A stretch of 64,000 nucleotides of DNA from an uncultured Gammaproteobacteria bacterium (GTDB taxonomy: Bacteria; Patescibacteriota; Microgenomatia; UBA12405), in NCBI GenBank assembly GCA_964408995.1, contig CAYPBP010000001.1:10823-74822 (forward strand), read 5' to 3'. Each line of letters begins with the position of its first letter. Position 1 is the stretch's first letter. Below, piece by piece: positions 2,233 through 63,407 of this stretch. The notes under the pieces are model-generated. The model ran no database searches, was not told the origin of the DNA, and saw nothing but the letters and a program-made list of their open reading frames with translations. Both the position numbers and the translations under genes were made by a program.

Positions 2233-2235
2233 ATT

Positions 2236-11386: not shown

Positions 11387-12483
11387 TGTCTAAAAAAATA
11401 AAAATAGCTATTGATATTTCTCCAACTCTTGATGGCAATGCTCTTCGAGGGGTTGGTTATTACACTTCAAATTTAATCACTGCTCTTCAAAGCGAAGTTA
11501 AAAATAATCCTGATTATAAAGATTGGTCAATAAAATTAATCAAAGACTGGAAATTAGAAATTGGAAATTATAATTTAATCCACTATCCTTACTTTGATCC
11601 CTTCAAATTAACTCTACCCAAAAAAAGTAATCTTCCCACTATAATTACTGTTCATGATTTAATCCCTATCGAGTTTAAAAAACATTTTCCTGTTGGTATT
11701 AAAGGTTATTTAAAGTGGTTAATTCAAAAAAATAGATTATTAAAAGTTGACAAAATATTAACTGTTTCTAACTATTCAAAAAATATTATTAATCAAATCA
11801 CTAAATTTAAATTAAGTAATATTTTCGCTACTCATTTAGCTGCTGATTCAAGTTTTAAACCTTGCAATAATATAAATAAATTAAAAGAAATTAAAAAGAA
11901 ATATAAATTACCATCAAAATTTGTCCTCTTTGTTGGTGATATTAATTGGAACAAAAATATTCCAACTTTAGTAAAAGCTTGTTTAAAATTAAAATATCCA
12001 TTAGTTATAGTTGGGTCTTCTGCTACTAAAAAAGATGTCCCTAATCATCCTTGGACTCAAGATTTACTTTGGCTCCAATCTAAATCTAGAGAACCAGAGC
12101 TCCAGCGCACCAAGAAACTAATTCTTACTGGCTTTGTATCTGACGAAGAGTTACCTTTTATTTTTAATTTAGCAACTATTTATTGTCAACCATCATTTGC
12201 CGAAGGGTTTGGATTACCTCTTGTTCAAGCCATGCAATCTGGCATCCCAATCGTTTACAGCCAAGATTCTTGCCTTAATGAAATTATGGACTCTAATGGT
12301 CTAAAATTTAATCCATACTCTCAAAAAAGTTTAGAGAAAGCTTTAAATCAATTTTGGCAAAGTGGAACTCTTCGTCAAAAATATGCCCAACTTGGTTTAG
12401 TTCGCGCTAAAAATTTTAGCTGGAAAAAAACTGCTCTTCAAACACTTGCCCTTTATAACTTGACTCTTTTAAATGAAAAATAA
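11386..12483 (+). CDS. glycosyltransferase family 4 (GT-B)
   Basis: C-terminal EGFGLPLVQAMQSGIPIV motif; track start 11371 is TTG, first ATG at 11386 overlapping upstream TAA (TAATG). Confidence 0.6.
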   Translation: MSKKIKIAIDISPTLDGNALRGVGYYTSNLITALQSEVKNNPDYKDWSIKLIKDWKLEIGNYNLIHYPYFDPFKLTLPKKSNLPTIITVHDLIPIEFKKHFPVGIKGYLKWLIQKNRLLKVDKILTVSNYSKNIINQITKFKLSNIFATHLAADSSFKPCNNINKLKEIKKKYKLPSKFVLFVGDINWNKNIPTLVKACLKLKYPLVIVGSSATKKDVPNHPWTQDLLWLQSKSREPELQRTKKLILTGFVSDEELPFIFNLATIYCQPSFAEGFGLPLVQAMQSGIPIVYSQDSCLNEIMDSNGLKFNPYSQKSLEKALNQFWQSGTLRQKYAQLGLVRAKNFSWKKTALQTLALYNLTLLNEK

Positions 12484-25055: not shown

Positions 25056-25826
25056 TTAAACAGTTTTTAAATTTTCTTTTATAAAATCCAAGATATAATC
25101 ATAAAATTCCAACAAACGATCTCTTTGATCAATAGGCACAAATGGTTTCAAGTCTAAGATAAACTTTTCCTTACTAAACTTATTTATCTTAGCAATTAAT
25201 TGGTCCGACATAAAAGTCTTTATATTGTAATATTTTAATTTTTCTTTCACTAATTTTTCATCTATAAAAATATTTTTACTCAATAAAAACCATAAATCAT
25301 AAATATCTCGTCCTTTATCTCGAGTTAATGTTGCTCTAATTTTTTCGGCCAATATTTCTTCAGCTGACAAATGATTCACATAAGCAGTAAATATAACTGG
25401 ATAATTTGTGTTTACAATTGATTGACTTGGATTTATCACTTTTTCCCTAAAAGAAAAATCAAGATTAATAAATATTTTATAATTAACTATATTCAAATCA
25501 GCCGTCAACAAATATTTATCTCCAGTAATAGTTTTTCTTTTCTTGAAATTAAAACCATATAATTTTTCTAGTTTCTTAAAAAATTTTATTATAAACACAT
25601 CAAATTCCTCTTTATCTCCCATAACGGTAAAATCTAAATCTTCTGAAAAACGTGTTCCTTTTAAAATTAATCTTATTGCTGTTCCTCCCTTAAAAAAAAT
25701 ATTTTGAGAATATTTTTCATCGTATAATTCCTTCAAAAATAGTGTTTGAATATACTCTCGAACCACTACACTTTCATTTATTTTTAACAGTCTTGAAAAT
25801 TCTTTTATTTGATTAGTAGTTAACAT
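25056..25826 (-). CDS. AbiEii/AbiGii-family nucleotidyltransferase toxin (type IV toxin-antitoxin/abortive infection)
   Basis: FFKGGTAIRLILKGTRFSEDLDFTV motif; 4-nt gap to upstream antitoxin gene. Confidence 0.6.
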   Translation of the reverse strand: MLTTNQIKEFSRLLKINESVVVREYIQTLFLKELYDEKYSQNIFFKGGTAIRLILKGTRFSEDLDFTVMGDKEEFDVFIIKFFKKLEKLYGFNFKKRKTITGDKYLLTADLNIVNYKIFINLDFSFREKVINPSQSIVNTNYPVIFTAYVNHLSAEEILAEKIRATLTRDKGRDIYDLWFLLSKNIFIDEKLVKEKLKYYNIKTFMSDQLIAKINKFSKEKFILDLKPFVPIDQRDRLLEFYDYILDFIKENLKTV

Positions 25827-25830
25827 ATTA

Positions 25831-26424
25831 TTATTTAATGATTTTTTTAACCAATTCCATAATATTCTTATCTGCTTTTAATTGACGACACATATCTAAA
25901 AATGTTTTTACATTAATGTTTCCCAGATCATATTCATCAAAATTAATTGATTTAAGACCTTTTGAAGCTAAATAAATTTGATCAAAAAGAGCTTTTTCTG
26001 GCAAAGCTATCAGCATATTATTTTTTTTAGTAAACATTCCAAAATATTTGGAATTTATATGACTGTAACTATATATTTTTTCATCAAATTTTTTAGTGAT
26101 ATTTTTCTTTGAAGTTACGTTAGTTATTTCAAAAGGAAATTGTGACAAAATACCCCAATAATTAAGAGCTGTTTCCAAAGAAATATAAGATGGTTGGTAC
26201 AAAAAATTAGCTATTTCAAAAGTATCTATATTTTTTCCAGTTACACAATACTTATTCTTTTCGATATTAATTAAAACTCCATTCTTTATAAAATCACTAA
26301 CAATTCGGTAATAAGTCCTTTCACTTTTTATACCCAAAATATCTTTTAATGTTTTTGAATTTATCAAAGTAAACCCAGACTCAAGTAATTTTTTTGTCAA
26401 TAAACTTAAACTATACGATTCCAT
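25831..26424 (-). CDS. AbiEi-family antitoxin / transcriptional regulator
   Basis: N-terminal winged-helix-like region, C-terminal AbiEi-like domain; directly upstream of AbiEii-like gene. Confidence 0.55.
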   Translation of the reverse strand: MESYSLSLLTKKLLESGFTLINSKTLKDILGIKSERTYYRIVSDFIKNGVLINIEKNKYCVTGKNIDTFEIANFLYQPSYISLETALNYWGILSQFPFEITNVTSKKNITKKFDEKIYSYSHINSKYFGMFTKKNNMLIALPEKALFDQIYLASKGLKSINFDEYDLGNINVKTFLDMCRQLKADKNIMELVKKIIK

Positions 26425-26462: not shown

Positions 26463-26539
26463 GTACTAATAAAAACAACCTCCTAGTAAATTGACCAGAC
26501 TACTAGCACACCAGAGCACTAACGTACTATAATGCATTA

Positions 26540-27340
26540 ATGCTTTCTCTTATCAAAGAAATAAAAGACATCTACAAATGGCGCGAACTATTATGGCAAA
26601 TGGTTGGCCGTGAAGTCAAAGCTCGCTACAAACAATCCATCCTCGGTTATTTCTGGGTTATCCTAAATCCACTAGCTCAAATGCTAGTCATGTCTTTTGC
26701 TTTCTCAATCATCATGCGAATTCCTACCAATTCAGCCAGCAATATTCCTTATTCTATTTTCCTTTTCGTTGCTCTTTTACCTTGGAACTTATTCACCGGT
26801 TCCCTTAGTTCAGCCGCTGGAGCCATAGTTGGAGCCGGTGGTTTAGTTACCAAAATTTATTTCCCTCGAACTATTTTAGTAATTGCCACTATCGTTGCTA
26901 AAATTATTGATTTTCTTTTTGCCAACATAGTCTTAGTTATTTATATGATTATTTACAACATACCAATCAATATAAATATTCTTTGGGTTATTCCAATCTT
27001 TTTTATTCAACAAATTTTCACTCTTGGTCTATCTCTTTTCTTTGCCGCCGCCAATCTTCTCTACCGAGACATTCAATACCTTTTATCAATGATTTTGCTT
27101 CTTTGGATGTATGTCACTCCAGTCATCTTCCCAGCCGATTTAGTCCCAGAAAGATACCGCTTTGTTTTCCAGATAAACCCTATGGCTGTCATTATTAATG
27201 CTTACAGGCAAGTAATTCTAGCTGGAGGTGTCCCTAAATACTCCAGTTTAGCCATCGCCATTGTCGTTTCTCTTATAACTCTTTTAATTGGCTTTAAATA
27301 TTTCAAATCTCGCGAAAAAATCTTCGCCGATAATATTTAG
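26540..27340 (+). CDS. ABC-2 type polysaccharide export permease (Wzm/TagG-like)
   Basis: WRELLWQMVGREVKARYKQSILGYFW signature; 6 TM helices. Confidence 0.7.
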   Translation: MLSLIKEIKDIYKWRELLWQMVGREVKARYKQSILGYFWVILNPLAQMLVMSFAFSIIMRIPTNSASNIPYSIFLFVALLPWNLFTGSLSSAAGAIVGAGGLVTKIYFPRTILVIATIVAKIIDFLFANIVLVIYMIIYNIPININILWVIPIFFIQQIFTLGLSLFFAAANLLYRDIQYLLSMILLLWMYVTPVIFPADLVPERYRFVFQINPMAVIINAYRQVILAGGVPKYSSLAIAIVVSLITLLIGFKYFKSREKIFADNI

Positions 27341-27341
27341 T

Positions 27342-27374
27342 CCTCTAGAACGCTGGTACTCTAGATCTCTAGAC
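27342..27374. repeat. degenerate period-8 array (ctctagNN)
   Basis: tcctctagaacgctggtactctagatctctagac; intergenic between the permease and the four-helix-bundle gene. Confidence 0.6.
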
Positions 27375-27409
27375 AATTAACAAATCAAAAACTAGCGAAA
27401 TAAATTAAT

Positions 27410-27775
27410 ATGAATTTTACTGATCTAAATATTTGGAAAGAAAGTAATAAATTAGCTATTACCATATATAAAATAACTAAAAATTTTCCAAAATCGGAAA
27501 TTTTTGGAATAACATCCCAACTACAAAGGGCTTCTACTTCTATTTCTGCTAATATTGCTGAAGGTTTCGGAAGGAAAGGCAATAAAGAATTTATCCAATT
27601 TTTATATCAAGCAAAAGGTTCTCTCTATGAAACTCAAAATTTTATACTTTTCAGCCGAGATATAGGTTATATTGAAAAATCAGAATCAGAAATTTTATTA
27701 AATCAATACGAATCATTAGCTAAAATGTTAAATTCCTTTATTACTAAGGTAAAATATAATAATGAAAACAAATAA
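27410..27775 (+). CDS. four-helix-bundle protein (PF05635-like, '23S rRNA intervening-sequence protein' family), copy 1
   Basis: 121 aa; LNIWKESNKLAITIYKIT...SQLQRASTSISANIAEGFGR motifs; sits between wzm- and wzt-like genes. Confidence 0.65.
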   Translation: MNFTDLNIWKESNKLAITIYKITKNFPKSEIFGITSQLQRASTSISANIAEGFGRKGNKEFIQFLYQAKGSLYETQNFILFSRDIGYIEKSESEILLNQYESLAKMLNSFITKVKYNNENK

Positions 27776-28553
27776 GGTGTCTAGCGAACCAGCGAACCAG
27801 CGAACCAGCGAACCAGACCAAATCGTTATACGATTTGGTCATGTTACCAAAGATTTTAGCAAACTCTCTCATAAAACCTTCAAAGAATTTCTTCCCGCTC
27901 TAATCAAAGGCGAAAAAACAGCTGAAAGTTTTACTGCTCTAAAAGACATTAGCTTTGAAATTAAAAAAGGGGAGACAGTTGGCATAATTGGTCCAAATGG
28001 CAGTGGCAAATCAACTATTCTAAAGCTCATTGCCGGCGTTATGTGGCCAACATCCGGAACAGTGCAAGTCAAAGGTAAAATCTCTCCTCTAATCGAGCTT
28101 GGTGCCGGCATGCATCCAGAATTAACTGGCAGTGAAAATATTTACTTAAACGGCGCCATTCTTGGTCTTTCTCAAAAAGAAATTGCGACCAATTACAAAT
28201 CTATTGTCGATTTTGCCGAAATTTGGGAATTTATCGATCAACCAATCAAACATTATTCTTCAGGTATGTATATGCGCCTTGCTTTTGCCATTGCCATTCA
28301 TGTCCACCCCGAAATTCTAATAGTCGACGAAATTCTATCTGTTGGTGATGCTGCTTTCCAAGACAAATGTTTCAAAAAGATGGAAGAATTTCAAAAATCA
28401 AAAGACATTACCATTATTTTTGTTACCCATGCTTTAGCTCAAGTCGAAAAATTCTGCACCCGCGCCATTTACATCAACAACCATCAAATCCAGTACGACG
28501 GCGATACTCAAAAAGCAACTAAAAAATATTTAGACGATCTAGAAAACAAATAA
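27762..28553 (+). CDS. ABC transporter ATP-binding protein (Wzt/TagH-like polysaccharide export ATPase)
   Basis: Walker A GPNGSGKST, signature YSSGM, Walker B ILIVDE; 5' end contains perfect octamer repeat. Confidence 0.75.
   Translation: MKTNKVSSEPANQRTSEPDQIVIRFGHVTKDFSKLSHKTFKEFLPALIKGEKTAESFTALKDISFEIKKGETVGIIGPNGSGKSTILKLIAGVMWPTSGTVQVKGKISPLIELGAGMHPELTGSENIYLNGAILGLSQKEIATNYKSIVDFAEIWEFIDQPIKHYSSGMYMRLAFAIAIHVHPEILIVDEILSVGDAAFQDKCFKKMEEFQKSKDITIIFVTHALAQVEKFCTRAIYINNHQIQYDGDTQKATKKYLDDLENK
27783..27819. repeat. perfect tandem octanucleotide repeat (agcgaacc) x4 plus partial copy, inside codons 8-19 of wzt-like gene
   Basis: ctagcgaaccagcgaaccagcgaaccagcgaaccagacc; translated SSEPANQRTSEPDQ. 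Confidence 0.9.
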
Positions 28554-28572
28554 TACACTAGCGCAAGTAGTA

Positions 28573-29397
28573 TTATTTGAGCTTAATGGATTTTTTCTGA
28601 GATAAATAGTTTTTTTTAGAAACAATTGTTTTACCAAGTTCATTTTCCAGTTCTTTTCTGGCATTTCCAGCAATTTTACCACCTCTGTTCGCGTCACTTT
28701 TTAATTTGGGTACACCAATGGATTTTTCTTGGCGATGAATTTCAGTAGTAGACCTTTCTCCTAGCATAGTGAAGATCAATTCGAAATCATCCATATGATC
28801 TCTTAAATTTTCTCTTTTGATTCCTTTGAGTTTTTTATATTCAATTGGAGTTACTCCAAAAGTGGCTTTAGAAATTTCTGCAGTCAAAATTTCATAATCT
28901 TTTTGTTCTTTAGCACCTCGTTTTTGCCATTCGTCAGTTAATTCCTCGCGGATGGCAATACCACGCATTCTTTTTTCAATCCAACTTTCTGAATAACCTT
29001 TAGCTTGGTACAAGGCACGAGTTCGCTTGGTGGCTAATTCTGGATCTTCGATTTCTTGGACTCGTTCATAACCAACTTTTGCTAACCACATTTTAAATGG
29101 TTCAGCCTTAGGTGAGGGGATTGATTGAATAATTCTAAATATTCCTTCAGTATTAGCACAATCTGTAATATATTTTTTCCCATCTGATGATTCAAGTTTC
29201 AGTTGTCGACAAATTGTCGATAACTGAAATCCATCATCATTCTTAACTCTTATTTTCATTTTAAACCAATAATCGTTAGGATTGACACTATCAGTGAGTG
29301 ATTGAACTACATCCACAACTGAAAACCACCACTCATTTGAATAAATTGTTCTTCTAATTTTTTTACCTTTAAAAATTGCCAAATAATTGTTGTTCAT
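28573..29397 (-). CDS. Bro-N domain protein with DinD-like C-terminal region, copy 1
   Basis: Bro-N pattern (KKIRRTIYSNEWWFSVVDV...NTEGIFRIIQSIPSPKAEPFKMWLAKVG); near-identical paralogue at 52925..53746. Confidence 0.6.
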   Translation of the reverse strand: MNNNYLAIFKGKKIRRTIYSNEWWFSVVDVVQSLTDSVNPNDYWFKMKIRVKNDDGFQLSTICRQLKLESSDGKKYITDCANTEGIFRIIQSIPSPKAEPFKMWLAKVGYERVQEIEDPELATKRTRALYQAKGYSESWIEKRMRGIAIREELTDEWQKRGAKEQKDYEILTAEISKATFGVTPIEYKKLKGIKRENLRDHMDDFELIFTMLGERSTTEIHRQEKSIGVPKLKSDANRGGKIAGNARKELENELGKTIVSKKNYLSQKKSIKLK

Positions 29398-29403
29398 ACT
29401 AAA

Positions 29404-29431
29404 ATAATACTAGAGTAATTGGTCTTGTCAA
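29404..29431 (-). promoter_or_regulatory. sigma70-like promoter TTGACA-16-TATTAT, 6 nt upstream of Bro-N copy 1 start
   Basis: minus-strand ttcggttttagtcaTTGACAagaccaattactctagTATTATtttagtATG; about 60 nt conserved with 51841..51888. Confidence 0.45.
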
Positions 29432-29652
29432 TGACTAAAACCGAAGAAAACACGAATGTAAATAAATAATAAAATTTAAAAAAATACATTAGTACTATAT
29501 GTTAAACTCATTAATCATCTAACAAAAGCGATTCAATAATACTCATCTTATCCCCAAATTTCAACTCAAGCAATTGTGCAAGAAAATGTGTATAAATGCT
29601 TGAAACCAAGCAATTATTCAATTTTTGTGAAACTGTGTTAAAATTATAATTA

Positions 29653-30858
29653 ATGATACAAAGACCAGAATATATTCAAAAACTTAAAGATTTACGCGAC
29701 AAAAAAATAATTAAAGTAATAACCGGTGTTCGTCGTTGTGGAAAGTCAACTTTATTAGAAATATATCAAAAAGAATTAATTAATGATGGTGTTTCCTCTA
29801 GCCAAATTCAATATTATAATTTCGAAAACCCAAAAAATTTAGTTTGGGCCGATAAATGGTTGGAACTTTATCAAAATATTATAAATAAAACCATAAAAGG
29901 TAAACAAAATTATATTTTTTTGGATGAAATTCAAAATATAAATAATTTTGAACGCCTAACTGATGGCCTTTTTGTTAAAAAGGGAATTGACTTATATGTT
30001 ACTGGGTCAAATGCTTATTTTCTCTCCCAAGATATAGCTACTATTCTTTCTGGTCGAATGTTTGAAATCAAAGTATTTCCCTTATCTTTTTCAGAGTATA
30101 TTTCAGCATTCAAAGATAAAAATGATCTTTCAGATAAGTTCGAAAAATATATTCAATATGGAGGAATGCCTCAAATTTTAGATTTTAAGAACAACCAAGG
30201 CCTTATATTAGAATATCTTCAAGGTTTATATAATACGGTTCATCTTAATGATGTTCTTAAACGACCTGGAGTTAATGATAAAGATGTTCTTAAAGATATT
30301 TCAGCTTTTATGTTAGATAATATTGGCAATATTACTGCTGCTAAAAAAATTGCTGATACTCTAACTTCAAAAGGTCGAGCAATATCTCACAGTACTGTTG
30401 AAAAATATATTTCCGCCTTAGCGGAAAGTTTACTCTTCTATTCAATTGACAAAATTGGCCTTAAAGGTCGTAAACGTTTATATTCTCAAAAAAAGTTTTA
30501 TACAATAGACACTGGTTTTAGACAAATAATTCTTAGTAGCAACCAATCAAGTGAAGACAGAGGCCATTTATTAGAAAATATTGTATATTTAGAATTACTC
30601 AGACGTAATCTTAAAGTAAATTTTGGTCGAGTTGGTGATAAAGAAGTCGATTTTGTAGTTACAACAAAAGAAGGGTATACTGAATATTACCAAGTATCTT
30701 GGAGTGTTAGAGACAAACATACATATCAAAGAGAAATAACACCCTTAGAATCTATAAAAGATCACAATACTAAATATCTGTTAACGATTGATCCAGAAGA
30801 ATCAATTAATAACGGCATCCGTCAAAAAAATGTCATCAATTGGCTTCTTGAAATTTAA
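29653..30858 (+). CDS. AAA+ ATPase (DUF4143-type 'ATP-binding protein')
   Basis: Walker A GVRRCGKST, Walker B FLDEIQ; C-terminal DUF4143-like region. Confidence 0.6.
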   Translation: MIQRPEYIQKLKDLRDKKIIKVITGVRRCGKSTLLEIYQKELINDGVSSSQIQYYNFENPKNLVWADKWLELYQNIINKTIKGKQNYIFLDEIQNINNFERLTDGLFVKKGIDLYVTGSNAYFLSQDIATILSGRMFEIKVFPLSFSEYISAFKDKNDLSDKFEKYIQYGGMPQILDFKNNQGLILEYLQGLYNTVHLNDVLKRPGVNDKDVLKDISAFMLDNIGNITAAKKIADTLTSKGRAISHSTVEKYISALAESLLFYSIDKIGLKGRKRLYSQKKFYTIDTGFRQIILSSNQSSEDRGHLLENIVYLELLRRNLKVNFGRVGDKEVDFVVTTKEGYTEYYQVSWSVRDKHTYQREITPLESIKDHNTKYLLTIDPEESINNGIRQKNVINWLLEI

Positions 30859-50410: not shown

Positions 50411-50440
50411 CTCTAAAGTTCTAACCATCTAAAGTTCTAT
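50411..50440. repeat. degenerate period-8 array (tctaaagt/tctaacca/tctaaagt/tctattat) immediately upstream of ugd
   Basis: ctctaaagttctaaccatctaaagttctat; GC hairpin cccgcaactgcggg just upstream at 50385..50398. Confidence 0.6.
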
Positions 50441-51882: not shown

Positions 51883-51888
51883 TTTGAT

Positions 51889-54998: not shown

Positions 54999-55966
54999 TT
55001 TTTAAATTGTTTATGCCAATTCCAAGCACTGCTGACAATGATTTCCAAATCAAAATACTTTGGCTCCCATTTTAAAACATTTTTAGCTTTGCTTGCGTCA
55101 GCAATTAATTCTGGTGGATCACCAGCCCTGCGATCTTTGGGAGTTACTTTAAAATCAATTTGAGTAACTTTTTTGGCCATATCAATTACTTCTTTGACAG
55201 AAAAGCCTTTACCGTTGCCCAAATTAAAACAATCACTTTGACCCCCGTCCATCAAATATTTCAAAGCCAACACATGAGCATCGGCCAAATCAGTCACATG
55301 GATATAATCACGAATACAAGTTCCATCTGGGGTTGGATAATCAGTTCCAAAAACTCCAATTTCTTCCCTGGCCCCAATAGCCGCATCTAGCACCAATGGA
55401 ATCAAATTTGAACTGCTTCCTTGCCATTCACCAGTTTCACCATCTAAATCAGCTCCACAAGCGTTGAAATATCTCAATGACACATACTTAAAACCATAAG
55501 CTGAAGAATAATCACGCATTATATGTTCTGTTATTAATTTAGTTTCGCCATATGGATTGATAGGGGATTGTGGGTGTTTTTCATCAAGAGGCATATATTG
55601 TGGTTCTCCATAAACTGCCGCTGATGAAGAAAAGATAAATTTATCCACCTTATTTTCCATCATCACCTTAAATAAATTCAAAGCGTTAGATACATTATTA
55701 ATATAATATTTTTGAGGATCAACTACCGATTCACCAACTGCTTTAAAAGCAGCAAAATGAAATACTGCTTCAATCGGATATTTTTTAAAAACTTCTCTAA
55801 TATTTTCAATATTTCCCAAATCACCTTCGAAAAATTCTCCCCATTTAACCAAATCTTTTTTACCCGAAGACAAGTTATCAAAAACAACTGTTTTGTAACC
55901 TTGTTTAGTCAGTTCTTTGTTAATATGAGAACCAATATATCCAGCTCCCCCTACAATTAAAATCAT
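54995..55966 (-). CDS. galE: UDP-glucose 4-epimerase
   Basis: MILIVGGAGYIGSH; YGETK catalytic motif; 323 aa. Confidence 0.8.
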   Translation of the reverse strand: MILIVGGAGYIGSHINKELTKQGYKTVVFDNLSSGKKDLVKWGEFFEGDLGNIENIREVFKKYPIEAVFHFAAFKAVGESVVDPQKYYINNVSNALNLFKVMMENKVDKFIFSSSAAVYGEPQYMPLDEKHPQSPINPYGETKLITEHIMRDYSSAYGFKYVSLRYFNACGADLDGETGEWQGSSSNLIPLVLDAAIGAREEIGVFGTDYPTPDGTCIRDYIHVTDLADAHVLALKYLMDGGQSDCFNLGNGKGFSVKEVIDMAKKVTQIDFKVTPKDRRAGDPPELIADASKAKNVLKWEPKYFDLEIIVSSAWNWHKQFKK

Positions 55967-56008
55967 ATTTAGTTTAATAGATAAATAGATAAATAGTTTA
56001 ATAGATAA

Positions 56009-56374
56009 TCAATAACTACAACTTTTTACCTTTGTTAATAATGAGTTTAACATTTTTGCTACTTCTATTGATAAATTAACAAGTCTTTCAAATTCATCAT
56101 TATTAATATATTCCAAATCTCTCGATAATTCTAAAAAATACTGTGTTTCAGACAAAGAACCTCTAGCCTGAACTAAAAACTGAGCAAATTCTTTGCTTGA
56201 TCTTCTGGCATTACCTTCTACAATATTTGCTGGAACAGAGCTAGAAGCTCTTCTTAATTGAGAAATAATTCCAAACAATTCATCTTTTGGATATGTTTTA
56301 GTAATTTTATACACCTCTAAAGTATACTCGTGGGCTTTTTTCCAAACTAATATATTATGGTACAACACAAACAA
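56009..56374 (-). CDS. four-helix-bundle protein (PF05635-like), copy 2; non-ATG (TTG/GTG) start
   Basis: ILVWKKAHEYTLEVYKIT...SQLRRASSSVPANIVEGNAR; no in-frame ATG near the N-terminus. Confidence 0.55.
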   Translation of the reverse strand: MFVLYHNILVWKKAHEYTLEVYKITKTYPKDELFGIISQLRRASSSVPANIVEGNARRSSKEFAQFLVQARGSLSETQYFLELSRDLEYINNDEFERLVNLSIEVAKMLNSLLTKVKSCSY

Positions 56375-56407
56375 TTCTACTACTCAACTACTTATCTAAT
56401 CAACTAC

Positions 56408-57511
56408 TTATCTAATCTCTTCCCATGGATACTCTTCATACCCAAAATGCCCATATTTAGCTGTGTTTTTATAGATTGGTCTTTTTAAATCAAATTTATC
56501 AATAATTCCTTTAACTGATAAATCCATTAAATTCCAAGCAAAATCATTAATTTCTGACAAATCTTTTTTGGATGTTCCAAAAGTTTCAATTGATTTACAA
56601 ATAAGATCCCGAAGACCAATTACATAGGCCAATTGCACTTCACATCTATCGGCCAACCCTGCTGCTACAATATTTTTAGCAATATATCTGGCTGCATAGG
56701 CTGCACTACGATCAACTTTTGTTGGATCTTTTCCCGAAAAACAACCACCACCAATTCTGCCCATGCCACCATAAGTATCCACCACAATTTTTCTACCAGT
56801 CACTCCCGTATCTGATGCTGGACCACCAATTTCCCAAGCCCCAGTTCCATTAAAAATAATTTCTTCTTCTGTTAACTTGTTTAGATTATATTTTTGCAAA
56901 ACTGGTAAAACAGCCAAATTATATAAATCAGATTTAACTTTTTCTTTATCAACTTGAGGATCAAATGGTTTGGCTAAAACTATTTTTTCAATTTTAGAAA
57001 CTTTACCATTTTCGTAACTAACACTTACTTCTGCTTTTCCATCCGGTCTTAAATAATTTAATTCACCAAATTGAAGTTCATCCATTTTTTTACAAAGTTC
57101 ATGAGACAAAACAATTGGCAAAGGCATTAGTTGTGGCGTTTCATTACAAGCATAACCAAACATCATTCCCTGATCTCCAGCTCCATCATTATCTGCACCA
57201 ATAGCAATATCTTTTGATTGCTGATGAACTAAAACCTCAATATCTGCACTTTCATCAAAATTTAAAATTGGATCTGTGTAACCAATTTCTTTAATTACTT
57301 TTTTAGCAATTTCAATATAATCCAAACTTTGACTACAAGTAACTTCACCTGCCATCACTATTTTATTAGTTGTTACTAAAGTTTCCAAAGCTACTCTAGC
57401 ATTTTTATCAACTATTAAAGCTGCATCTAGAACAGCATCTGAAATTTGATCCGAAACCTTATCTGGATGACCACAACACACTGACTCTGACGTAAATAGG
57501 AGATAATTCAT
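56408..57511 (-). CDS. metK: S-adenosylmethionine synthetase
   Basis: FTSESVCCGHPDKVSDQISDAVLDA, GDQGMMFGYA, GGGCFSGKDPTKVDRSAAYAARY motifs. Confidence 0.85.
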   Translation of the reverse strand: MNYLLFTSESVCCGHPDKVSDQISDAVLDAALIVDKNARVALETLVTTNKIVMAGEVTCSQSLDYIEIAKKVIKEIGYTDPILNFDESADIEVLVHQQSKDIAIGADNDGAGDQGMMFGYACNETPQLMPLPIVLSHELCKKMDELQFGELNYLRPDGKAEVSVSYENGKVSKIEKIVLAKPFDPQVDKEKVKSDLYNLAVLPVLQKYNLNKLTEEEIIFNGTGAWEIGGPASDTGVTGRKIVVDTYGGMGRIGGGCFSGKDPTKVDRSAAYAARYIAKNIVAAGLADRCEVQLAYVIGLRDLICKSIETFGTSKKDLSEINDFAWNLMDLSVKGIIDKFDLKRPIYKNTAKYGHFGYEEYPWEEIR

Positions 57512-57714: not shown

Positions 57715-58938
57715 ATGAAAATCTTATTATTAAGCCACATTTTTCCACCTGCAATTGATGGTGGTTCAAAAGTAATTTATAAACTTGGTCAATATTTTGA
57801 ATCTCAAGACCATCAAACCCTTTATCTTTCTTCCAATTGCACCAGCACCGACGATTTTGTTAAAGCAAAAAATTATCGACAATCTAACAGCAACGATCCA
57901 ACCTCTCTTTTAAAACTTCCTGTCTATCACCATCTTCGTCGTCCACTAAAATTTTTAAACTTATTTTTAAAAAAAGATCTATTAAAAGTTTTTCAAAAAG
58001 GCCCCATTTTTAAATTTATTCCATTTATAAAAGCCACTTATCAAGTAATAAAATTCAAACCCGATTTAATTGTTGCCGGACCACTTCCCACCACCATAGT
58101 CCTCTACGCCAGATTTTTCAAATTTATTTCTAAAGCTCTAACACTCAAAAGTTCTAAAGTTCTAATCAATTCTTCTTTCCATCAAACTGATCAAGACTTT
58201 CAACAAAAATCCTTAATCAAATCTCTTCAAAATGCTGATTATCTTTGGACCTTAACTCAATTTGAAACTGATTACTTTATTAAAAATTTTAAAATTAACC
58301 CTCAAAAAATAATCCTCGCCGGCAATGGCATAGATAATAACTTCTTAGTAAGGTGCCCTGTCAAGGGAAAGGTGGTACGAAGTACCAAAGGGTTTAATAT
58401 CTTGTTTATAGGAAGCCTTGCTGCCCATAAACGCGTAGATCTTCTTATCAAATCTTTTTCTAAAGTTCTAAAGCTCTACAGCTCTAACCCTCTAACTTTA
58501 ACCATCGCTGGTCAAAAAACCCTCTTTTATCCCCAAATACAAAAAACCATAAAGTCTCTTCCCAAAAATATTCAAAAACAAATAAAATTTATTTTTAATT
58601 TTAAAGAATCAGATTTAGCCAAATTAATCGATAATTGCGATATATTAGTTTTACCTTCAGTCCAAGAAAGTTTTGGTTTAGTTCTCGTCGAAGCCTGGGC
58701 CAGACAAAAACCAGTTATTACTAGTGACATTCCATCATTGAAAGAATTAGTTTCTAAGACTAAAGGGGGATTAACTTTTAAAACTGATAACCAAAAAGAT
58801 CTTAGTCAAACAATTATTAAACTAATTAACAACCAGAAACTTTGCCACCAATTGGGCCAAAATGCTTTTGAATATGTTAAAACTAATTATACTTGGAAAA
58901 AAGTAGGAGAAAAAATATGTCAAAAAATATTATCTTAA
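57715..58938 (+). CDS. glycosyltransferase family 4 (GT-B) carrying the 47-nt element and two period-8 arrays in-frame
   Basis: NGIDNNF ... FNILFIGSLAAHKRVDLL ... SVQESFGLVLVEAWARQKPVITSD motifs; 15 inserted residues VRCPVKGKVVRSTKG encoded by the element. Confidence 0.6.
   Translation: MKILLLSHIFPPAIDGGSKVIYKLGQYFESQDHQTLYLSSNCTSTDDFVKAKNYRQSNSNDPTSLLKLPVYHHLRRPLKFLNLFLKKDLLKVFQKGPIFKFIPFIKATYQVIKFKPDLIVAGPLPTTIVLYARFFKFISKALTLKSSKVLINSSFHQTDQDFQQKSLIKSLQNADYLWTLTQFETDYFIKNFKINPQKIILAGNGIDNNFLVRCPVKGKVVRSTKGFNILFIGSLAAHKRVDLLIKSFSKVLKLYSSNPLTLTIAGQKTLFYPQIQKTIKSLPKNIQKQIKFIFNFKESDLAKLIDNCDILVLPSVQESFGLVLVEAWARQKPVITSDIPSLKELVSKTKGGLTFKTDNQKDLSQTIIKLINNQKLCHQLGQNAFEYVKTNYTWKKVGEKICQKILS
58129..58168. 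repeat. degenerate period-8 array (tctaaagc/tctaacac/tcaaaagt/tctaaagt/tctaatca) inside GT4 coding sequence
   Basis: translated FISKALTLKSSKVLINSS. Confidence 0.65.
58350..58396. repeat. 47-nt GC-rich hairpin element, copy 2 (identical to 5648..5694), translated in a different frame
   Basis: aaggtgccctgtcaagggaaaggtggtacgaagtaccaaagggttta. Confidence 0.85.
58459..58498. repeat. degenerate period-8 array (tctaaagt/tctaaagc/tctacagc/tctaaccc/tctaactt) inside GT4 coding sequence
   Basis: translated SKVLKLYSSNPLTL; the 'tctaa' unit is read in all three frames. Confidence 0.65.
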
Positions 58939-59372: not shown

Positions 59373-60384
59373 AAAATCCAGAGCACCAGAGCACCAGAGC
59401 ACCAGAGCACCAAATTTCTCCATAATCATTCCCAACTACAACGGTGCTCAATTTATAGCTGATTGTTTGAACTCACTTTATCAATCAATTCAAAATTGTC
59501 CCAATTCAGAATTTGAAATAATTCTTGTCGACAATGGATCTAAAGATAATAGTATTGAAATTTTTCAAAAAATAATTCCCAAAAATATTCACTATAAAAT
59601 TTTATTGAATTCTCAAAATAAAGGTTTTGCCCCAGCTGTTAATCAAGGCATAAATAAAGCCAAATATGAATATGTTGTCTTACTAAATAATGACTTAACT
59701 ATGGAACCTGATTGGTTTCAATTAATTTCTAATCAAATAAAAATTAATAAAGATCCAAAAATCACTACTTTCTTTGGCACAGTTTTGACTAAAGATGGCT
59801 CTAAATTTGAATCCCAAGGTTTAGAGTTTTTCTATTCTGGCAAAGCTCAAAATATCTCCAATGGCAAAGATTTTACCCCATCTACGACCTACGACCTACA
59901 ATCTACTAAACTAGTTTGGGGTGCTTCCGCCGCTCTAGTTGTTTACAAAAAAGAAACTCTAGAAAAAATTGGCCTCTTTGATGAAGATTTTTTTGCCTAT
60001 GAAGAAGATGTTGATTTGGCCCTGCGACTCCACAATTTAAACTATAAAACTCTTTATATCCCCGCTGCCATTTCCTATCATATAGGAGGCGGAACCAGCA
60101 ACAAAATGGGGATTTTTAGATACAAAATGGATGCTAAAAATTGGATTTACATTATAATCAAAAACTTTTCCAAAAAAGAAATAATAACTAATTTACCCAA
60201 AATTATAGAAGAACGATTAAGAAACTTATCTGGTTTAAGTAAGCAAACTATTCGTATTTATAAACTGAAATCAATTTTCTATTTACCATACATATTATTT
60301 TCTACTTACGGTGAAGTTTTAGTTAAACTACCAAAAATGTTTAACAAACGTAAATCTATCAAAAAACTTGATAGACTATGCTAA
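59365..60384 (+). CDS. glycosyltransferase family 2 with octamer repeat in its 5' end
   Basis: FSIIIPNYNGAQF...VDNGSKDNS...VLLNNDL motifs; N-terminal SRAPEHQSTRAP encoded by repeat. Confidence 0.65.
   Translation: MTKKSRAPEHQSTRAPNFSIIIPNYNGAQFIADCLNSLYQSIQNCPNSEFEIILVDNGSKDNSIEIFQKIIPKNIHYKILLNSQNKGFAPAVNQGINKAKYEYVVLLNNDLTMEPDWFQLISNQIKINKDPKITTFFGTVLTKDGSKFESQGLEFFYSGKAQNISNGKDFTPSTTYDLQSTKLVWGASAALVVYKKETLEKIGLFDEDFFAYEEDVDLALRLHNLNYKTLYIPAAISYHIGGGTSNKMGIFRYKMDAKNWIYIIIKNFSKKEIITNLPKIIEERLRNLSGLSKQTIRIYKLKSIFYLPYILFSTYGEVLVKLPKMFNKRKSIKKLDRLC
59378..59411. repeat. perfect tandem octanucleotide repeat (ccagagca) x4, codons 5-16 of GT2 gene
   Basis: ccagagcaccagagcaccagagcaccagagcacc. 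Confidence 0.9.
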
Positions 60385-60405
60385 TTAAAATTTAAAAACT
60401 AAAAT

Positions 60406-60436
60406 TCTAGTGCTCTAAAGCTCTAAAACTCTAAAA
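60406..60436. repeat. degenerate period-8 array (gtgctcta/aagctcta/aaactcta) immediately upstream of GT4 start
   Basis: tctagtgctctaaagctctaaaactctaaaatATG. Confidence 0.6.
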
Positions 60437-60437
60437 T

Positions 60438-61580
60438 ATGATCATCGGTATTGATATCTCCACCATTCCCTACAAAACTGGCGTCAGTAATTACACCTTA
60501 AATCTAATTAGAAATCTTTTAAAAATAGATAAGCTTAATACTTATAAATTTTTTTATTCATCCCTAAGACTTCCACTTCCAGAAGAAATTGTTCAACTAA
60601 AAAAAAGTCATTCCAACCTTGAAATTTATCAATTTAAATTACCACCAACCTTACTTCAAATTTTATGGAATCAACTTCACTTATTTCCAATCGAATTTTT
60701 TATTGGCAAATGCCATCTTTTTCATACTTCAGATTGGACTCAACCTCCAACATTAAAAGCCAAAACCATCACTACTGTCCATGACCTAACTCCTTTTTTG
60801 TTTCCAAAGTGGCATCATCCAAAAGTTGTTAAAGCTCATCACCACAAAATGAAATTGGCCATTAAAAAATGTAGTCAATTTATTTGTGTTTCCCAAAATA
60901 CTAAAAACGATTTATTGAAATTATTTCCCAAAGTTGATGCTCAAAAGATTACTGTCATTTATGAAGCTGCTGAAAATAAGTACGATAGTTTCTTAAAACT
61001 TAGTAAAGAAATTCAACAAAAAAAACTTGACACTATTAAAAAACAATATGGTCTTGATAAATTTATTCTAGCTCAAGGAACCAGAGAACCCCGAAAAAAT
61101 TTAAAAAGATTAATTGATGCTTTCATGATATTTAAAAAGAAGTACCCCAGTTGCCATGTTGAATTGGCTATTGCTGGTAAATATGGTTGGGGCCAAGATG
61201 TCGATGGTAAAAAAGATCCATCAATAAAAATACTTGGATTTATCCCCGAAAAAGATATGGTTGCTCTTCATGCCAGTACTATTTGTTTGGCTTATCCATC
61301 ACTTTATGAAGGTTTTGGTTTGCCTTTGGTAAAATCCCTAAAAGTTAAAGTCCCTATTATTACTAGTAATATTTCTTCTATGCCAGAAGTTGCCGGTAAA
61401 GCCGCTATTTATGTTAATCCAGAATCAACCTCTGAACTTGCAAAAGCCATTGAAACAATTGTTAAATCAGCTGCCACCAGAAACAGATTAAAATCTAGAA
61501 GTTTAGATCAAGCCAAAAATTTCAGTTGGATTAAAACCGCCAAAGAAAGCTTAAATGTCTATGTCAAAACCATTAACTGA
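60438..61580 (+). CDS. glycosyltransferase family 4 (GT-B)
   Basis: MIIGIDISTIP...; YEGFGLPLVKSL...ITSNISSMPEV motifs. Confidence 0.6.
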   Translation: MIIGIDISTIPYKTGVSNYTLNLIRNLLKIDKLNTYKFFYSSLRLPLPEEIVQLKKSHSNLEIYQFKLPPTLLQILWNQLHLFPIEFFIGKCHLFHTSDWTQPPTLKAKTITTVHDLTPFLFPKWHHPKVVKAHHHKMKLAIKKCSQFICVSQNTKNDLLKLFPKVDAQKITVIYEAAENKYDSFLKLSKEIQQKKLDTIKKQYGLDKFILAQGTREPRKNLKRLIDAFMIFKKKYPSCHVELAIAGKYGWGQDVDGKKDPSIKILGFIPEKDMVALHASTICLAYPSLYEGFGLPLVKSLKVKVPIITSNISSMPEVAGKAAIYVNPESTSELAKAIETIVKSAATRNRLKSRSLDQAKNFSWIKTAKESLNVYVKTIN

Positions 61581-62244: not shown

Positions 62245-63368
62245 TTGGTATTGATGGTAACGAAGCTAATATTAAAAACCGAGTTGGTGTTGGTCAATAT
62301 GCTTTTAATTTATTATTAAACATTTATTCCCTGGACAAAAAAAATAAATATATTATTTATTTAAAAGAAGAAGCCCAAGATGATCTGCCAAAAGCTAATC
62401 CTAACTGGCAATACAAAGTTTTTGGACCGAAAAAACTTTGGACTAAAATAGCCCTACCAATTAAATTGTTTACCCAATCAGATAAATTAGATTTATTCTA
62501 TTCACCTAGCCATTATTCACCATCTCTTTGCCCTTGTCCCACTGTTCCTACTATTCACGATTTAGGTTATCTTCAATCTCAAGATCAATTCACTAAAAAA
62601 GATTTATATCAATTAATCAATTGGACCGAAAAATCTCTCAAAAAATCCAGTCATATTATTACTGTTTCTAATTTTTCCAAAAACGAAATTGAAAAAATCT
62701 ACAAAATAAATCCTAAAAAAATTACTATTGCCTATAACGGAGTTAGTTCGCCACCAAAGATTGATACAAAAGATCAACAAAAAATCCTTTCTCTATACAA
62801 TCTTCAATCTAAAAACTATTATCTCTACTTAGGTACTCTTAAACCCAACAAAAACCTCCCATTTTTAATCAAATCTTTTTCTGAATTTATAAAAAAATCT
62901 AAAGCTCTAAAGATCCAAAGTTCTAACGTTCTAGTTATTGCTGGTAAAAAAGGCTGGCTCTTTGATGAAATTTTTAGTTGTGTCAAACAAGAAGGAATCG
63001 AAAACAATATTGTTTTCACTGACTTTATTGATGAATCTCAAAAGTGGACTTTGTATCAAAATGCTAAAGCTTTGATTATGCCAAGTCTTTATGAAGGTTT
63101 TGGTATTCCTGTTATTGAAGCCATGAAAGTAAACACTCCAGTAATTTCAAGTAATATTATCCCTTTAAAAGAAGTCCTTCAAAACAATGCTTTCTATTTC
63201 AACCCAACTAAAGAAAAAGAACTGATCGATCAATTAATCAAGTTTGAAAAACTTAATTCTTTAGGCATCAAAAAAATAACTGATAAAGCCAAGCTTAGGG
63301 CTGATTTTTTTAGCTGGCAAAACACTGCCAAATCAGTCATTTCTGTTTTTGAAAAATTTAAAAATTAA
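62238..63368 (+). CDS. glycosyltransferase family 4 (GT-B)
   Basis: MLIGIDGNEAN...; SLYEGFGIPVIEAMKVNTPVISSN. Confidence 0.6.
   Translation: MLIGIDGNEANIKNRVGVGQYAFNLLLNIYSLDKKNKYIIYLKEEAQDDLPKANPNWQYKVFGPKKLWTKIALPIKLFTQSDKLDLFYSPSHYSPSLCPCPTVPTIHDLGYLQSQDQFTKKDLYQLINWTEKSLKKSSHIITVSNFSKNEIEKIYKINPKKITIAYNGVSSPPKIDTKDQQKILSLYNLQSKNYYLYLGTLKPNKNLPFLIKSFSEFIKKSKALKIQSSNVLVIAGKKGWLFDEIFSCVKQEGIENNIVFTDFIDESQKWTLYQNAKALIMPSLYEGFGIPVIEAMKVNTPVISSNIIPLKEVLQNNAFYFNPTKEKELIDQLIKFEKLNSLGIKKITDKAKLRADFFSWQNTAKSVISVFEKFKN
62898..62935. repeat. degenerate period-8 array (tctaaagc/tctaaaga/tccaaagt/tctaacgt/tctag) inside GT4 coding sequence
   Basis: translated SKALKIQSSNVLV; same position in the GT4 fold as the array at 58459. 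Confidence 0.65.
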
Positions 63369-63377
63369 AATATAACT

Positions 63378-63407
63378 TTCTAATGCTCTAACCTTCTAAT
63401 GCTCTAT
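63378..63407. repeat. degenerate period-8 array (tctaatgc/tctaacct/tctaatgc/tctattta), intergenic
   Basis: ttctaatgctctaaccttctaatgctctattta upstream of acetyltransferase gene. Confidence 0.6.

Follow-up and report, generated by a model that had tools for sequence, protein, structure and literature searches.

The octamer tract at the 5' end of a wzt gene is probably the right arm of an intervening-sequence-like cassette

Introduction

The closest described systems are the intervening sequences (IVS) of rRNA genes. The 23S IVS of Coxiella has a length of 428 nt and contains an S23p ORF; its terminal inverted repeats form a stem that is cut by RNase III, and its tandem heptamers differ between strains (2 vs 3 copies) (PMC4990558). 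IVS carrying the S23p protein, or intervening-sequence protein (IVP), occur in the rRNA genes of Coxiella burnetii and Leptospira (PMC4990558), and also in CPR rRNA genes (PMC11270868). The IVP/S23p/"four helix bundle protein" family is without known function (PMC4990558, PMC11270868). Most of what is known of it comes from rRNA intervening sequences and from its kinship with the Avd proteins of diversity-generating retroelements (DGR).

Simple sequence repeats (SSRs) of surface genes are the other group to be compared. Octanucleotide phase variation was reportedly described by Erwin in 2006 for losA of H. influenzae, in a paper cited in PMC6156194. Contingency loci show documented heterogeneity in copy number, and alleles that are out of frame are to be expected in them. 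An operational criterion for a phase-variable tract is the presence of at least 3 octanucleotide units inside an ORF (PMC7383803). In H. influenzae hmw1A, RNase III processes the hairpin of a 5'-UTR heptamer SSR, and the structure of this hairpin is linked to the number of repeats (PMC12721329).

In the window, which is the whole 64,000-nt stretch of DNA analysed here, the first-pass annotation had described a perfect octamer repeat at the 5' coding end of wzt as a candidate contingency switch. Our analysis suggests that the tract is probably the right arm of an IVS-like cassette inserted between wzm and wzt (Table 1).

Table 1. Coordinates of the genes, cassette arms and octamer-family arrays in the window.
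Feature	Position	Strand	Evidence or context
Solo degenerate array CCAGACTA CTAGCACA CCAGAGCA CTAACGTA	26495..26526	+	13 nt before wzm ATG
wzm, ABC-2 permease	26540..27340	+	PF01061; adjoins wzt directly in 27 related loci
Left arm of cassette A, antisense octamer array (reverse complement CTAGAGAT CTAGAGTA CCAGCGTT CTAGAGGA)	27340..27375	.	Inverted-repeat pair, family scan, arm covariation
Lone sense unit CTAGCGAA	27392..27399	+	Shortly 5' of IVP A start
IVP gene A, 121-aa 23S rRNA intervening-sequence protein / four-helix-bundle protein	27410..27775	+	PF05635 E=1.9e-39
wzt/tagH-like polysaccharide-export ABC ATPase, 263 aa	27762..28553	+	PF00005; closest models TagH/Wzt; filled vs empty site
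Right arm of cassette A, sense array CTAGCGAA CCAGCGAA x3 CCAGACCA	27778..27820	+	Inverted pair, folds, family scan
Perfect tract AGCGAACC x4.25 (= CCAGCGAA units)	27783..27816	+	wzt codons 8-19; TRF, exact scan, simulations
Cassette B arm, period-8 array AATAGATA x4.1	55965..56008	.	TRF, inverted pair, fold, flank duplex z=-5.1
IVP gene B, 121 aa, 53% identical to IVP A	56009..56374	-	PF05635 E=6.9e-39; BLASTP 3e-43
Cassette B second arm, period-8/16 array CTAATCAACTACTTAT x2.4, reverse complement of first	56374..56417	.	TRF, inverted pair, fold
Decayed in-frame array, inter-domain loop of GT1 gene 11371-12483, CTAGAGAA CCAGAGCT CCAGCGCA ...	12086..12125	+	Family scan
Solo non-coding array CTAAAGTT CTAACCAT CTAAAGTT	50413..50436	+	Family scan
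Decayed in-frame array inside GT1 gene 57715-58938	58130..58169	+	Family scan
Decayed in-frame array, inter-domain loop of GT1 gene 57715-58938, before LTIAGQ	58460..58499	+	Family scan
Perfect array CCAGAGCA x4.4	59378..59412	+	Codons 5-16 of GT2 glycosyltransferase (59365-60384)
Solo non-coding array CTAAAATT CTAGTGCT CTAAAGCT CTAAAACT CTAAAATA	60399..60438	+	Adjoins GT1 gene ATG
Decayed in-frame array, inter-domain loop of GT1 gene 62238-63368, before LVIAGKKGW	62899..62938	+	Family scan
Solo non-coding array CTAATGCT CTAACCTT CTAATGCT	63380..63403	+	Family scan

Results

The octamer tract of wzt

TRF analysis found AGCGAACC with period 8, 4.2 copies and 100% matches, and the exact-repeat scan gave 4.25 copies; the perfect repeat reported earlier is therefore confirmed. 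Its placement in codons 8-19 also holds, as seen from the translation of the ORF, which begins MKTNKVSSEPANQRTSEPDQIVIRF. Degenerate first and last units extend the array to 27781-27820. Two perfect period-8 arrays with at least 4 copies occur in the window; none was obtained in 200 Markov-2 simulations. Downstream of the tract, no in-frame ATG, GTG or TTG occurs before the Walker A motif, so that the tract is translated, as had been claimed; upstream of the tract there is no start codon in another frame. The gain or loss of one unit would cut Wzt to 29-49 aa, which bears out the predicted loss of the product. Only 1, 4 or 7 units give full-length Wzt, and every other number gives 21-57 aa.

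The GC content of the array (27781-27820) is 60%, compared with 28% for the window. The GC-richness noted earlier is real, but the idea that it sets the tract apart is not supported: the right arm must be stop-free and in frame because translation of Wzt reads through it, and the GC-rich CCAG form of its units follows from this need. Ribosome binding and the supply of stops in three frames were considered as roles of the arrays and set aside; the genome lacks Shine-Dalgarno sequences altogether.

The IVP cassette between wzm and wzt

An inverted array matching the wzt tract was found 402 nt upstream, directly preceded by the TAG stop codon of wzm (27338-27340). The two arms (27340-27375 and 27778-27813) form an inverted pair of 36 nt with 72% complementarity, and they enclose an IVP gene whose product scores 128.8 bits against TIGR02436 (cutoff 24). 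The stop codon of this gene overlaps the ATG of wzt by 14 nt, and the right arm is translated as the N-terminal tail of Wzt. The arrays were at first taken for direct repeats because their CTAG core is palindromic; this arrangement was rejected, since reverse-complement comparison, repeat search and folding all identified them as inverted. The Rfam search found neither rRNA nor any other known RNA family in the window.

The arms of cassette A are paired in both the MFE and the centroid folds, and the arms-only duplexes have energies of -25.1 and -26.3 kcal/mol. In six of seven cassettes, the flank duplex gave z values from -2.3 to -5.1 against shuffles that kept base composition only; such duplex scores are inflated by the palindromic CTAG core. 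The whole-cassette A fold was not better than its shuffles (z=-0.95). Three of the four left-arm units now mismatch the homogenised right arm.

The wzm and wzt genes adjoin each other with a gap of 17-27 nt in 27 related loci, none of which has the octamer tail. The tail is present in all 8 loci in which an IVP gene precedes wzt, and L242 is a ninth case. This association gave Fisher p=4e-8 against the 27 tail-free loci, a value that ignores kinship; the 8-vs-27 contrast may reflect one ancient insertion because the compared loci are related. In 7/7 loci checked, the overlap of the IVP stop with the wzt ATG measures 4-14 nt. Filled and empty sites were compared at the nucleotide level, and the site of the cassette corresponds to the normal junction stop-TT-ATG. 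IVP divergence tracks wzt divergence among the loci. In L129 and L242, a sense array of 3-4 units stands at the position of the lone unit found in the window at 27392-27399.

The two arms also covary across six cassettes. The right arm of L130 carries CCAG followed by TTAT, TAAT or TTGT, and the reverse complement of its left arm has the matching variants. Both arms share the motif CTAAAG in L141 and CTAGAG in L129; CCAGCG/CTAGCG occurs in the window and in L139, whose left units match.

Copy number among relatives

Comparison of the window with L202 showed that all four units differ, each at one shared unit position, as in concerted evolution. Near-identical strains are distinguished by a 48-nt (6-unit) duplication, and in L242 there are about 10 vs 5 units. 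Repeat number varies across relatives, but the differences are 3, 6 and 6 units, all multiples of three, and the start is in frame in 52/52 complete orthologous loci, where tail-bearing proteins are in frame by construction. The orthologous arrays are mostly decayed (lag-8 identity 0.53-0.82). Perfect arrays with at least 4 units are limited to the two in the window; L138 is perfect at 3 units. One candidate for an out-of-frame, start-less allele (P0260/L243) was rejected as a slippage product, since its array is broken and its contig is rearranged and of low coverage (4.7x). A search for proteins identical to the Wzt and GT2 of the window found no second occurrence.

Cassette B and IVP genes elsewhere

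A second IVP gene in the window lies between two co-directional minus-strand genes. Its arms form an inverted pair of 38 nt with 74% complementarity (87% in a 23-nt core) and are paired in the folds; the first arm stops about 9 nt short of the ATG of the downstream gene (54995-55966, minus strand). The IVP proteins score about 128 bits against TIGR02436. Both cassettes are flanked by protein-coding genes and lie outside any 23S/16S rRNA gene; their neighbours include wzm, wzt, Bro-N, AAA_14, AbiE and NYN.

In the collections searched, the IVP/S23p family is present in several phyla. IVP genes of Chitinophagales and of another Bacteroidota MAG are placed between operon genes and have inverted 7/8-mer arrays, as do six of the eight plasmid-borne IVP genes sampled. 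Taken together, arms of this kind accompany IVP genes in Bacteroidota, Cyanobacteria and Azospirillum.

Other arrays of the octamer family

The window contains 12 octamer-family arrays, against 0.41 expected. The cassette does not account for the whole family because 11 of the 12 are solo, among them the perfect array of GT2 and the four that lie in frame within GT1 genes. The GT2 array has no IVP gene and no inverted partner, and its orthologues have exactly one unit vs about four in the window. It is a better candidate for a simple switch than the wzt tract. The array before wzm has a counterpart in L129. By TRF, one non-coding array (50412-50439) stops 2 nt short of the ATG of a UDP-glucose dehydrogenase gene, and another (63373-63406) begins 4 nt past the stop at 63368. 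The L015 orthologue of the GT1 gene at 62238-63368 has about 10 GC-rich units at the equivalent site.

The sense consensus of the units is C-Y-A-R-N-G-N-W. The register was set on the CYAR core, so that conservation of this core is partly circular; only for G at position 6 and A/T at position 8 is the conservation independent of this choice. The non-coding arrays are built of CTAA/CTAG units, whereas the translated wzt arm has the CCAG form. A universal sequence-specific generator of the octamer was also considered. It was dropped, since scrambled six-frame-open controls gave 15, 12 and 3 hits in viral contigs vs 1 for the family; the octamer unit is therefore not special globally. A genome-wide scan for (CCAGMGHA)x3 found, among the matches listed, mostly GC-rich taxa.

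Comparison with known systems

The cassettes resemble the rRNA IVS in several features: the PF05635/TIGR02436 protein, a similar length (474 and 453 bp vs 428 nt), complementary termini that enclose the ORF with a predicted stem, and 7-8 nt tandem direct repeats in the flanks whose number varies between strains. However, they are located between protein-coding genes of a glycan operon and not in a 23S/16S helix. Their stems are weaker, with 72-74% complementarity over 36-38 nt compared with a near-perfect 28 bp in Coxiella. Moreover, one cassette arm is translated and provides the downstream gene with its reading frame and start context.

Like losA and other 5'-coding SSR loci, the wzt tract is a tandem octanucleotide in a surface-glycan gene, where a change of one unit shifts the frame. 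Unlike these loci, the wzt relatives show in-frame alleles only, decayed arrays and an inverted-repeat cassette. The likeness to hmw1A is that the repeat forms one arm of a long predicted RNA hairpin beside a surface-structure gene; the hmw repeats, however, are non-coding and give graded expression, whereas the wzt arm is coding and the predicted hairpin encloses a whole gene.

The IVP family has a four-helix-bundle fold homologous to that of Avd (PMC10053308). The IVP proteins match the bAvd and Avd models weakly, with 22-28 bits for the Avd equivalog NF033474 (cutoff 80). No reverse transcriptase was found among the scanned ORFs of the window, and no long TR/VR-like repeat near the cassettes. 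Unlike the variation of DGR, that among the octamer units is not adenine-specific. DGR/Avd adenine mutagenesis was rejected, since the variable unit positions are not adenines and the Avd model scores far below its cutoff.

Discussion

The association with the IVP gene and the arm structure suggest that the wzt tract probably arose as part of cassette A, which spans 27340-27813 (474 bp) and consists of the 121-aa IVP/S23p gene within inverted octamer arrays. The insertion would have removed the native start of wzt. Translation of Wzt would now begin at the ATG overlapping the IVP stop codon and pass through the right arm, giving a short hydrophilic N-terminal tail. The arrays turn over via slipped-strand mispairing, with the two arms co-evolving. 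The tract is a latent frameshift hotspot, because only 1, 4 or 7 copies leave Wzt intact. In the polycistronic RNA, the arms are predicted to pair like those of the rRNA intervening sequences (about -25 kcal/mol for the arms alone), and the stem may be a substrate of RNase III or may mask the 5' end of wzt. Ribosomes completing IVP could unfold the stem and then re-initiate on wzt, whose ATG overlaps the IVP stop. With a useful gene relying on it for a start codon, the cassette would not easily be lost.

Phase variation of wzt is mechanistically possible, but the tract can be accounted for without it. The proposed contingency switch stands in part: the tract is translated, frame-sensitive and variable in copy number. 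It is not a stand-alone tract but an arm of the inverted pair around the IVP gene, and on/off switching could only be a side effect of this. A true contingency locus, maintained for on/off switching of the glycan exporter (and of GT2 at 59378) and for surface variation, is conceivable but appears doubtful. There are four perfect units, of a length not divisible by 3, in the 5' coding end; frameshifts truncate the product to 14-57 aa with no rescue start; another glycan gene has a second perfect array with related units at its 5' end; and losA offers an octanucleotide precedent. Copy number varies among orthologues and close strains, and the concerted evolution points to repeated slippage. However, every start in the 52 complete orthologous loci is in frame, with copy differences in multiples of three, and the perfection of the arrays has mostly not been kept. 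Judging from tetranucleotide tracts, four units are short for a high switching rate, which also counts against this reading. The tract exceeds the operational minimum of 3 units (PMC7383803), and N-terminal SSR enrichment is a recognised signature of such loci, although termini tolerate SSRs on structural grounds alone (PMC3315296). Arrays of the family also occur at non-switch sites, namely protein loops and non-coding spacers, and an enrichment in glycan genes cannot be claimed because the entire window consists of glycan genes. The IVP cassette, by comparison, explains why the tract exists and where it lies, as well as its sequence and its GC content.

Could the arms instead be the terminal inverted repeats of a non-autonomous, transposon-like DNA element that moves the IVP gene, with the octamers as transposase sites or footprints? 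The inverted arms do bound the IVP gene, filled and empty alleles occur side by side in 90%-identity clusters, and a transposition origin of IVS elements has been proposed (PMC4990558). The wzm/wzt junction is also a hotspot, which holds NYN, AbiEi/Eii, RhuM or GNAT in other loci, and IVP genes lie between operon genes in many phyla. Nevertheless, this origin seems very unlikely: a transposase is missing from the cassette, neither cassette A nor cassette B shows a visible target-site duplication, and the parallel divergence of IVP and wzt is consistent with vertical inheritance. The empty allele diverges from the filled ones across about 70 nt of the adjoining wzt sequence, which points to homologous recombination and not to precise insertion or excision. 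The tract might also be a coding microsatellite of the ordinary kind, with no function and no relation to the neighbouring gene, that grew by chance within an N-terminal tail able to accommodate it. Insertions are indeed tolerated in N-termini and loops (PMC3315296), none of the six frames of the unit contains a stop, and scrambled six-frame-open octamers form viral-contig arrays at least as often. Such a chance origin is extremely improbable, being already largely refuted by the perfect IVP association, the inverted array 402 nt upstream, the arm covariation and the excess of family arrays in the window.

A broader extension of the cassette reading is unlikely, though it can be stated. IVP genes might be the cargo of widespread selfish "operon intervening sequences", with inverted 7-8-mer arms and RNase III-type stems in both mRNA and rRNA. 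Such an element would have captured start codons of glycan genes in these CPR bacteria, its coding arm would make the genes phase-variable, and the solo arrays would be relics or landing pads. If so, the cassette would addict the host and impose a hypermutable switch on surface-glycan export.

Conclusions

Operon-located IVP genes with co-evolving inverted 7-8-mer arrays, found in CPR, Bacteroidota, Cyanobacteria and Azospirillum, provide a concrete and testable element anatomy outside rRNA. Perfect non-triplet 5' repeats in such genomes should not automatically be annotated as contingency loci. The conversion of an arm into coding sequence at the 5' end of an exporter ATPase gene would be an unusual route to the fixation of a small insert, and the insertion would leave a surface-glycan gene of this episymbiotic-type bacterium with a tract prone to frameshifts.

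The octamer array in wzt

As the first-pass annotation had described, a perfect octamer repeat lies in the 5' coding end of wzt, the export ABC ATPase gene; TRF recovered it with 100% matches, and an exact scan gave 4.25 copies. The tract-bearing ORF, translating MKTNKVSSEPANQRTSEPDQIVIRF..., is an ABC ATPase (PF00005) with TagH/Wzt as nearest models. Judged from the names that its homologues carry, the source is a CPR bacterium close to Candidatus Shapirobacteria. Perfect period-8 arrays of at least four copies occur just twice in the 64-kb window and were absent from 200 Markov-2 simulations. The coordinates are collected in the table.

Features of the window discussed in the text
Feature	Position	Strand	Remarks
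Six tandem paralogous ORFs	544-10565		540-573 aa
First paralogue discussed	544-2232
Second paralogue discussed	5623-7326		PMT-type GT-C glycosyltransferase
47-nt element, two copies	5648-5694; 58350-58396		AAGGTGCCCTGTCAAGGGAAAGGTGGTACGAAGTACCAAAGGGTTTA
Radical-SAM ORF	14183-17113		976 aa
NYN and AbiEii/AbiEi-like genes	24238-26424		directly 5' of wzm
wzm	26540-27340		ABC-2 permease, upstream of wzt; stop TAG 27338-27340
Left cassette arm	27340-27375
IVP gene	27410-27775		121 aa, 23S_rRNA_IVP family, upstream of wzt
wzt	27762-28553
Right cassette arm	27778-27813
Reported tract	27783-27816		AGCGAACC x4.2
wzt end, two copies	28440-28560; 30874-30994		83% identity
Bro-N gene	28573-29397	-	in 2.4-kb insertion
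Bro-N inverted duplicates	28573-29457; 51829-53746		442 nt at 86%
AAA_14/DUF4143 ATPase	29653-30858		in 2.4-kb insertion
40-aa ORF	30865-30987
RhuM	51889-52932
Second IVP gene	56009-56374	-	PF05635 6.9e-39; 53% identical to first IVP
Second perfect array	59378-59412		CCAGAGCA x4.4; codons 5-16 of GT2 glycosyltransferase
GT1 loop array	62899-62938		CTAAAGNT units

The tract as an arm of an IVP cassette

The tract is interpreted as the right arm of an IVS-like IVP cassette, which has taken the place of the native wzt start; this accounts for where the tract lies, for its sequence family and GC content, and for its tandem structure. The window order is the wzm stop, a left array starting directly after it, the IVP gene (23S rRNA intervening-sequence protein, S23p), and the reported array. 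In reverse complement, the left array reads CTAGAGAT CTAGAGTA CCAGCGTT CTAGAGGA. A repeat search showed that the arms are inverted (36 nt, 72% complementary), and they are paired in both the MFE and centroid folds. The palindromic CTAG core can make the flanks look like direct repeats, a reading that was rejected.

The arms co-vary across cassettes. In one related locus (L130), the right arm carries CCAG-TTAT/TAAT/TTGT, and the left arm, once reverse-complemented, has the same three variants. Both arms carry CTAAAG in L141 and CTAGAG in L129; in the window and L139, the units are CCAGCG/CTAGCG with matching left units. The wzm gene adjoins wzt in 27 loci (gap 17-27 nt, e.g. ...ATCTAATTATG...), none with a tail; the IVP gene lies directly 5' of wzt in eight loci, all with an octamer tail, and L242 is a ninth. 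The association gave a Fisher p of 4e-8, uncorrected for relatedness among these related loci. The wzt ATG and the IVP stop overlap by 4-14 nt in all seven loci checked, and in the L131/L244 lineage the IVP gene was lost but the arm kept. Between the filled and empty alleles of close strains, some 70 nt of the adjoining wzt sequence differ, a pattern more suggestive of homologous recombination between alleles than of transposition.

IVP genes with repeat arms elsewhere

The second IVP gene is wedged between two co-directional genes, and its arms are again period-8 arrays in inverted orientation (38 nt, 74%; 23-nt core, 87%; z=-5.1 for the flank duplex). Both IVPs pass TIGR02436, not the Avd equivalog; Avd, an accessory protein of diversity-generating retroelements, is a homologue of the IVP family (PMC10053308). 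Among the pattern-scan matches listed, two unrelated genomes likewise have IVP genes with arms of this kind: a Chitinophagales MAG with arms (TGGTACGC)x7 ... GCGTACCA GCGTACTA, and another Bacteroidota MAG with inverted heptamers. Inverted tandem 7- or 8-mer arrays flank six of the eight plasmid-borne IVP genes sampled (Riemerella, Geminocystis, Azospirillum, Stanieria, Picosynechococcus, and Nostoc punctiforme), with duplex z of -3 to -7 in five of the six. Several plasmid IVP genes lie between operon genes, such as cmr2 and cmr3.

The Coxiella 23S rRNA IVS is a 428-nt 'selfish' element, whose S23p ORF belongs to the same family as the window IVPs; its terminal inverted repeats pair into a stem of 28 bp that RNase III cuts, and it contains tandem heptamers in two or three copies by strain (PMC4990558). 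S23p has no known function (PMC4990558). The rRNA insertions of CPR bacteria also carry IVP ORFs (PMC11270868). A functional analogue is hmw1A, whose heptamer SSR makes up one arm of a hairpin that RNase III processes (PMC12721329). An Rfam search of the window returned no RNA family, and the literature, within searchable limits, gave no account of non-rRNA IVP genes flanked by tandem-repeat arms.

The octamer family

TRF was run, blind to the repeat unit, on 335 kb of Shapirobacteria-like DNA, made up of the window and 69 related loci. Periods 8 and 16 account for 23 of the 42 tandem repeats whose GC is 0.35 or more, and nearly all of these belong to one family, C-Y-A-R-N-G-N-W on the gene-sense strand. 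The window contains 12 family arrays (0.41 expected). Non-coding arrays have CTAA/CTAG units with stops in three frames, and finish 1-15 nt 5' of the next start codon. In coding arrays, unit position 2 is C wherever an in-frame TAA/TAG would result; in perfect arrays every unit is CCAG.

Eleven of the 12 window arrays, including the perfect GT2 array, are solo, with neither an IVP gene nor an inverted partner. They might be cassette relics, cassette targets, or independent microsatellites. The GT2-array unit differs from CCAGCGAA at two of eight positions. GT1 genes contain four of the solo arrays in frame, and three of these four fall in inter-domain loops. In the orthologous GT1 loop of L015 (1841-1920), there are about 10 GC-rich CCAGAGCA/CCAGCGAA units, and the window counterpart has 4-5 AT-decayed units; this is thus one site with arrays differing in length and 'age' by lineage. 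In L082 (2518-2640) and L119 (501-600; Nitrospinota MAG), a CCAGAGCA array is followed within about 40 nt by its own inverted copy with no ORF between. These pairs look like cassette arms reduced to a hairpin that lacks an ORF; the L082 pair encodes a protein N-terminus and a signal-peptide-like segment.

Array turnover and phase variation

A Wzt core query, with the tail excluded, retrieved 80 metagenomic loci. The 5' end is complete in 52, all with an in-frame ATG. Eleven Wzt loci have N-terminal tails encoded by decayed octamer arrays (lag-8 identity 0.53-0.82), and similar tails occur in about 20 of the best 120 database Wzt proteins. Within 90%-identity protein clusters, the tail is absent, a single block, or an exact 16-aa (48-nt, 6-unit) tandem duplication; these differences were confirmed in the DNA of near-identical contigs. 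L242 (GCA_028685145.1) has about 10 units of the window's own family, against five. The L202 wzt array has the same length and site as in the window, with A in all four units where the window has C, which is concerted evolution. The GT2 orthologues follow the same pattern as the Wzt tails. Between conserved flanks, L200 (87% aa identity) and L201 each show a single unit where the window has four, a gap of exactly 24 nt. The lone start-less wzt allele (L243, 1-260) has a tail array broken after three units, and the sequence before it is unrelated and has many small GC hairpins. This allele is either null or the product of a chimeric assembly (rearranged contig, 4.7x coverage).

The tract had been proposed as a candidate contingency switch. 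The frameshift logic holds: when wzt was rebuilt in silico with 0-8 units, full-length Wzt resulted from one, four, or seven units alone, and any other number gave 21-57 aa. As also claimed, the stretch from the tract to Walker A has no in-frame ATG, GTG, or TTG. Starts in another frame are likewise absent upstream. The tract has at least three octanucleotide units within an ORF, an operational criterion for phase-variable tracts (PMC7383803), and coding phase variation by an octanucleotide has a precedent in losA (Erwin 2006, cited in PMC6156194). The suggested comparison with relatives showed that copy number does vary, always by multiples of three units, and no out-of-frame allele was found among the loci compared. 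The GC contrast is real (60% in the right arm, 27.7% in the window), but it is not a special mark, since a unit read as protein must be stop-free. Phase variation of wzt is mechanistically possible and fits the turnover seen, but the IVP cassette explains the tract without it, and an adaptively maintained switch is unlikely. If any array here is a simple switch, the perfect GT2 array is the likeliest one.

Other insertions and features

The last 120 nt or so of wzt are present twice, flanking a 2.4-kb insertion, and the 40-aa ORF repeats the Wzt C-terminus; the 3' end of wzt thus also took an insertion, with the end regenerated. The Bro-N duplicates share further segments. A 71-nt duplicate (86%) spanning a promoter-like TTGACA-N17-TATTAT lies upstream of the first Bro-N and upstream of RhuM, which precedes the second. 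In other Shapirobacteria-like contigs (L121, L155, L158, L160, L162, L149, L128), the wzm-wzt junction is filled by NYN-domain, AbiEii/AbiEi, RhuM, and GNAT genes. Within this glycan cluster, the junctions between genes form hotspots of small genes of accessory or defence type.

The perfect 47-nt GC-rich element, with two small hairpins, lies inside unrelated PMT-like GT-C and GT1 genes, read in differing frames and open in both. N-terminal peptides such as ...SPALSREGLGEGF... in some GT2 homologues (P0126, P0140, P0168) look like a translated related element. Among the tandem paralogues, the GT-C enzyme is the lone family match of those scanned, and 544-2232 matched no family in the scan. An intein that carries a LAGLIDADG homing-endonuclease domain lies within the radical-SAM ORF. 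Shine-Dalgarno sequences are essentially absent upstream of 54 ORFs across the window, because these regions are simply AT-rich; in several genes a TATAAT-like box stands only a few bases from the ATG, which suggests leaderless or non-SD initiation.

A possible role of the cassette

In the operon transcript, the arms would pair at about -25 kcal/mol, and the resulting stem may undergo cleavage or may cover the 5' end of wzt. Translation of the IVP gene, ending 2 nt 5' of the arm, could open the stem and allow re-initiation at the overlapping ATG. The cassette may be stabilised by holding the start of a useful gene.
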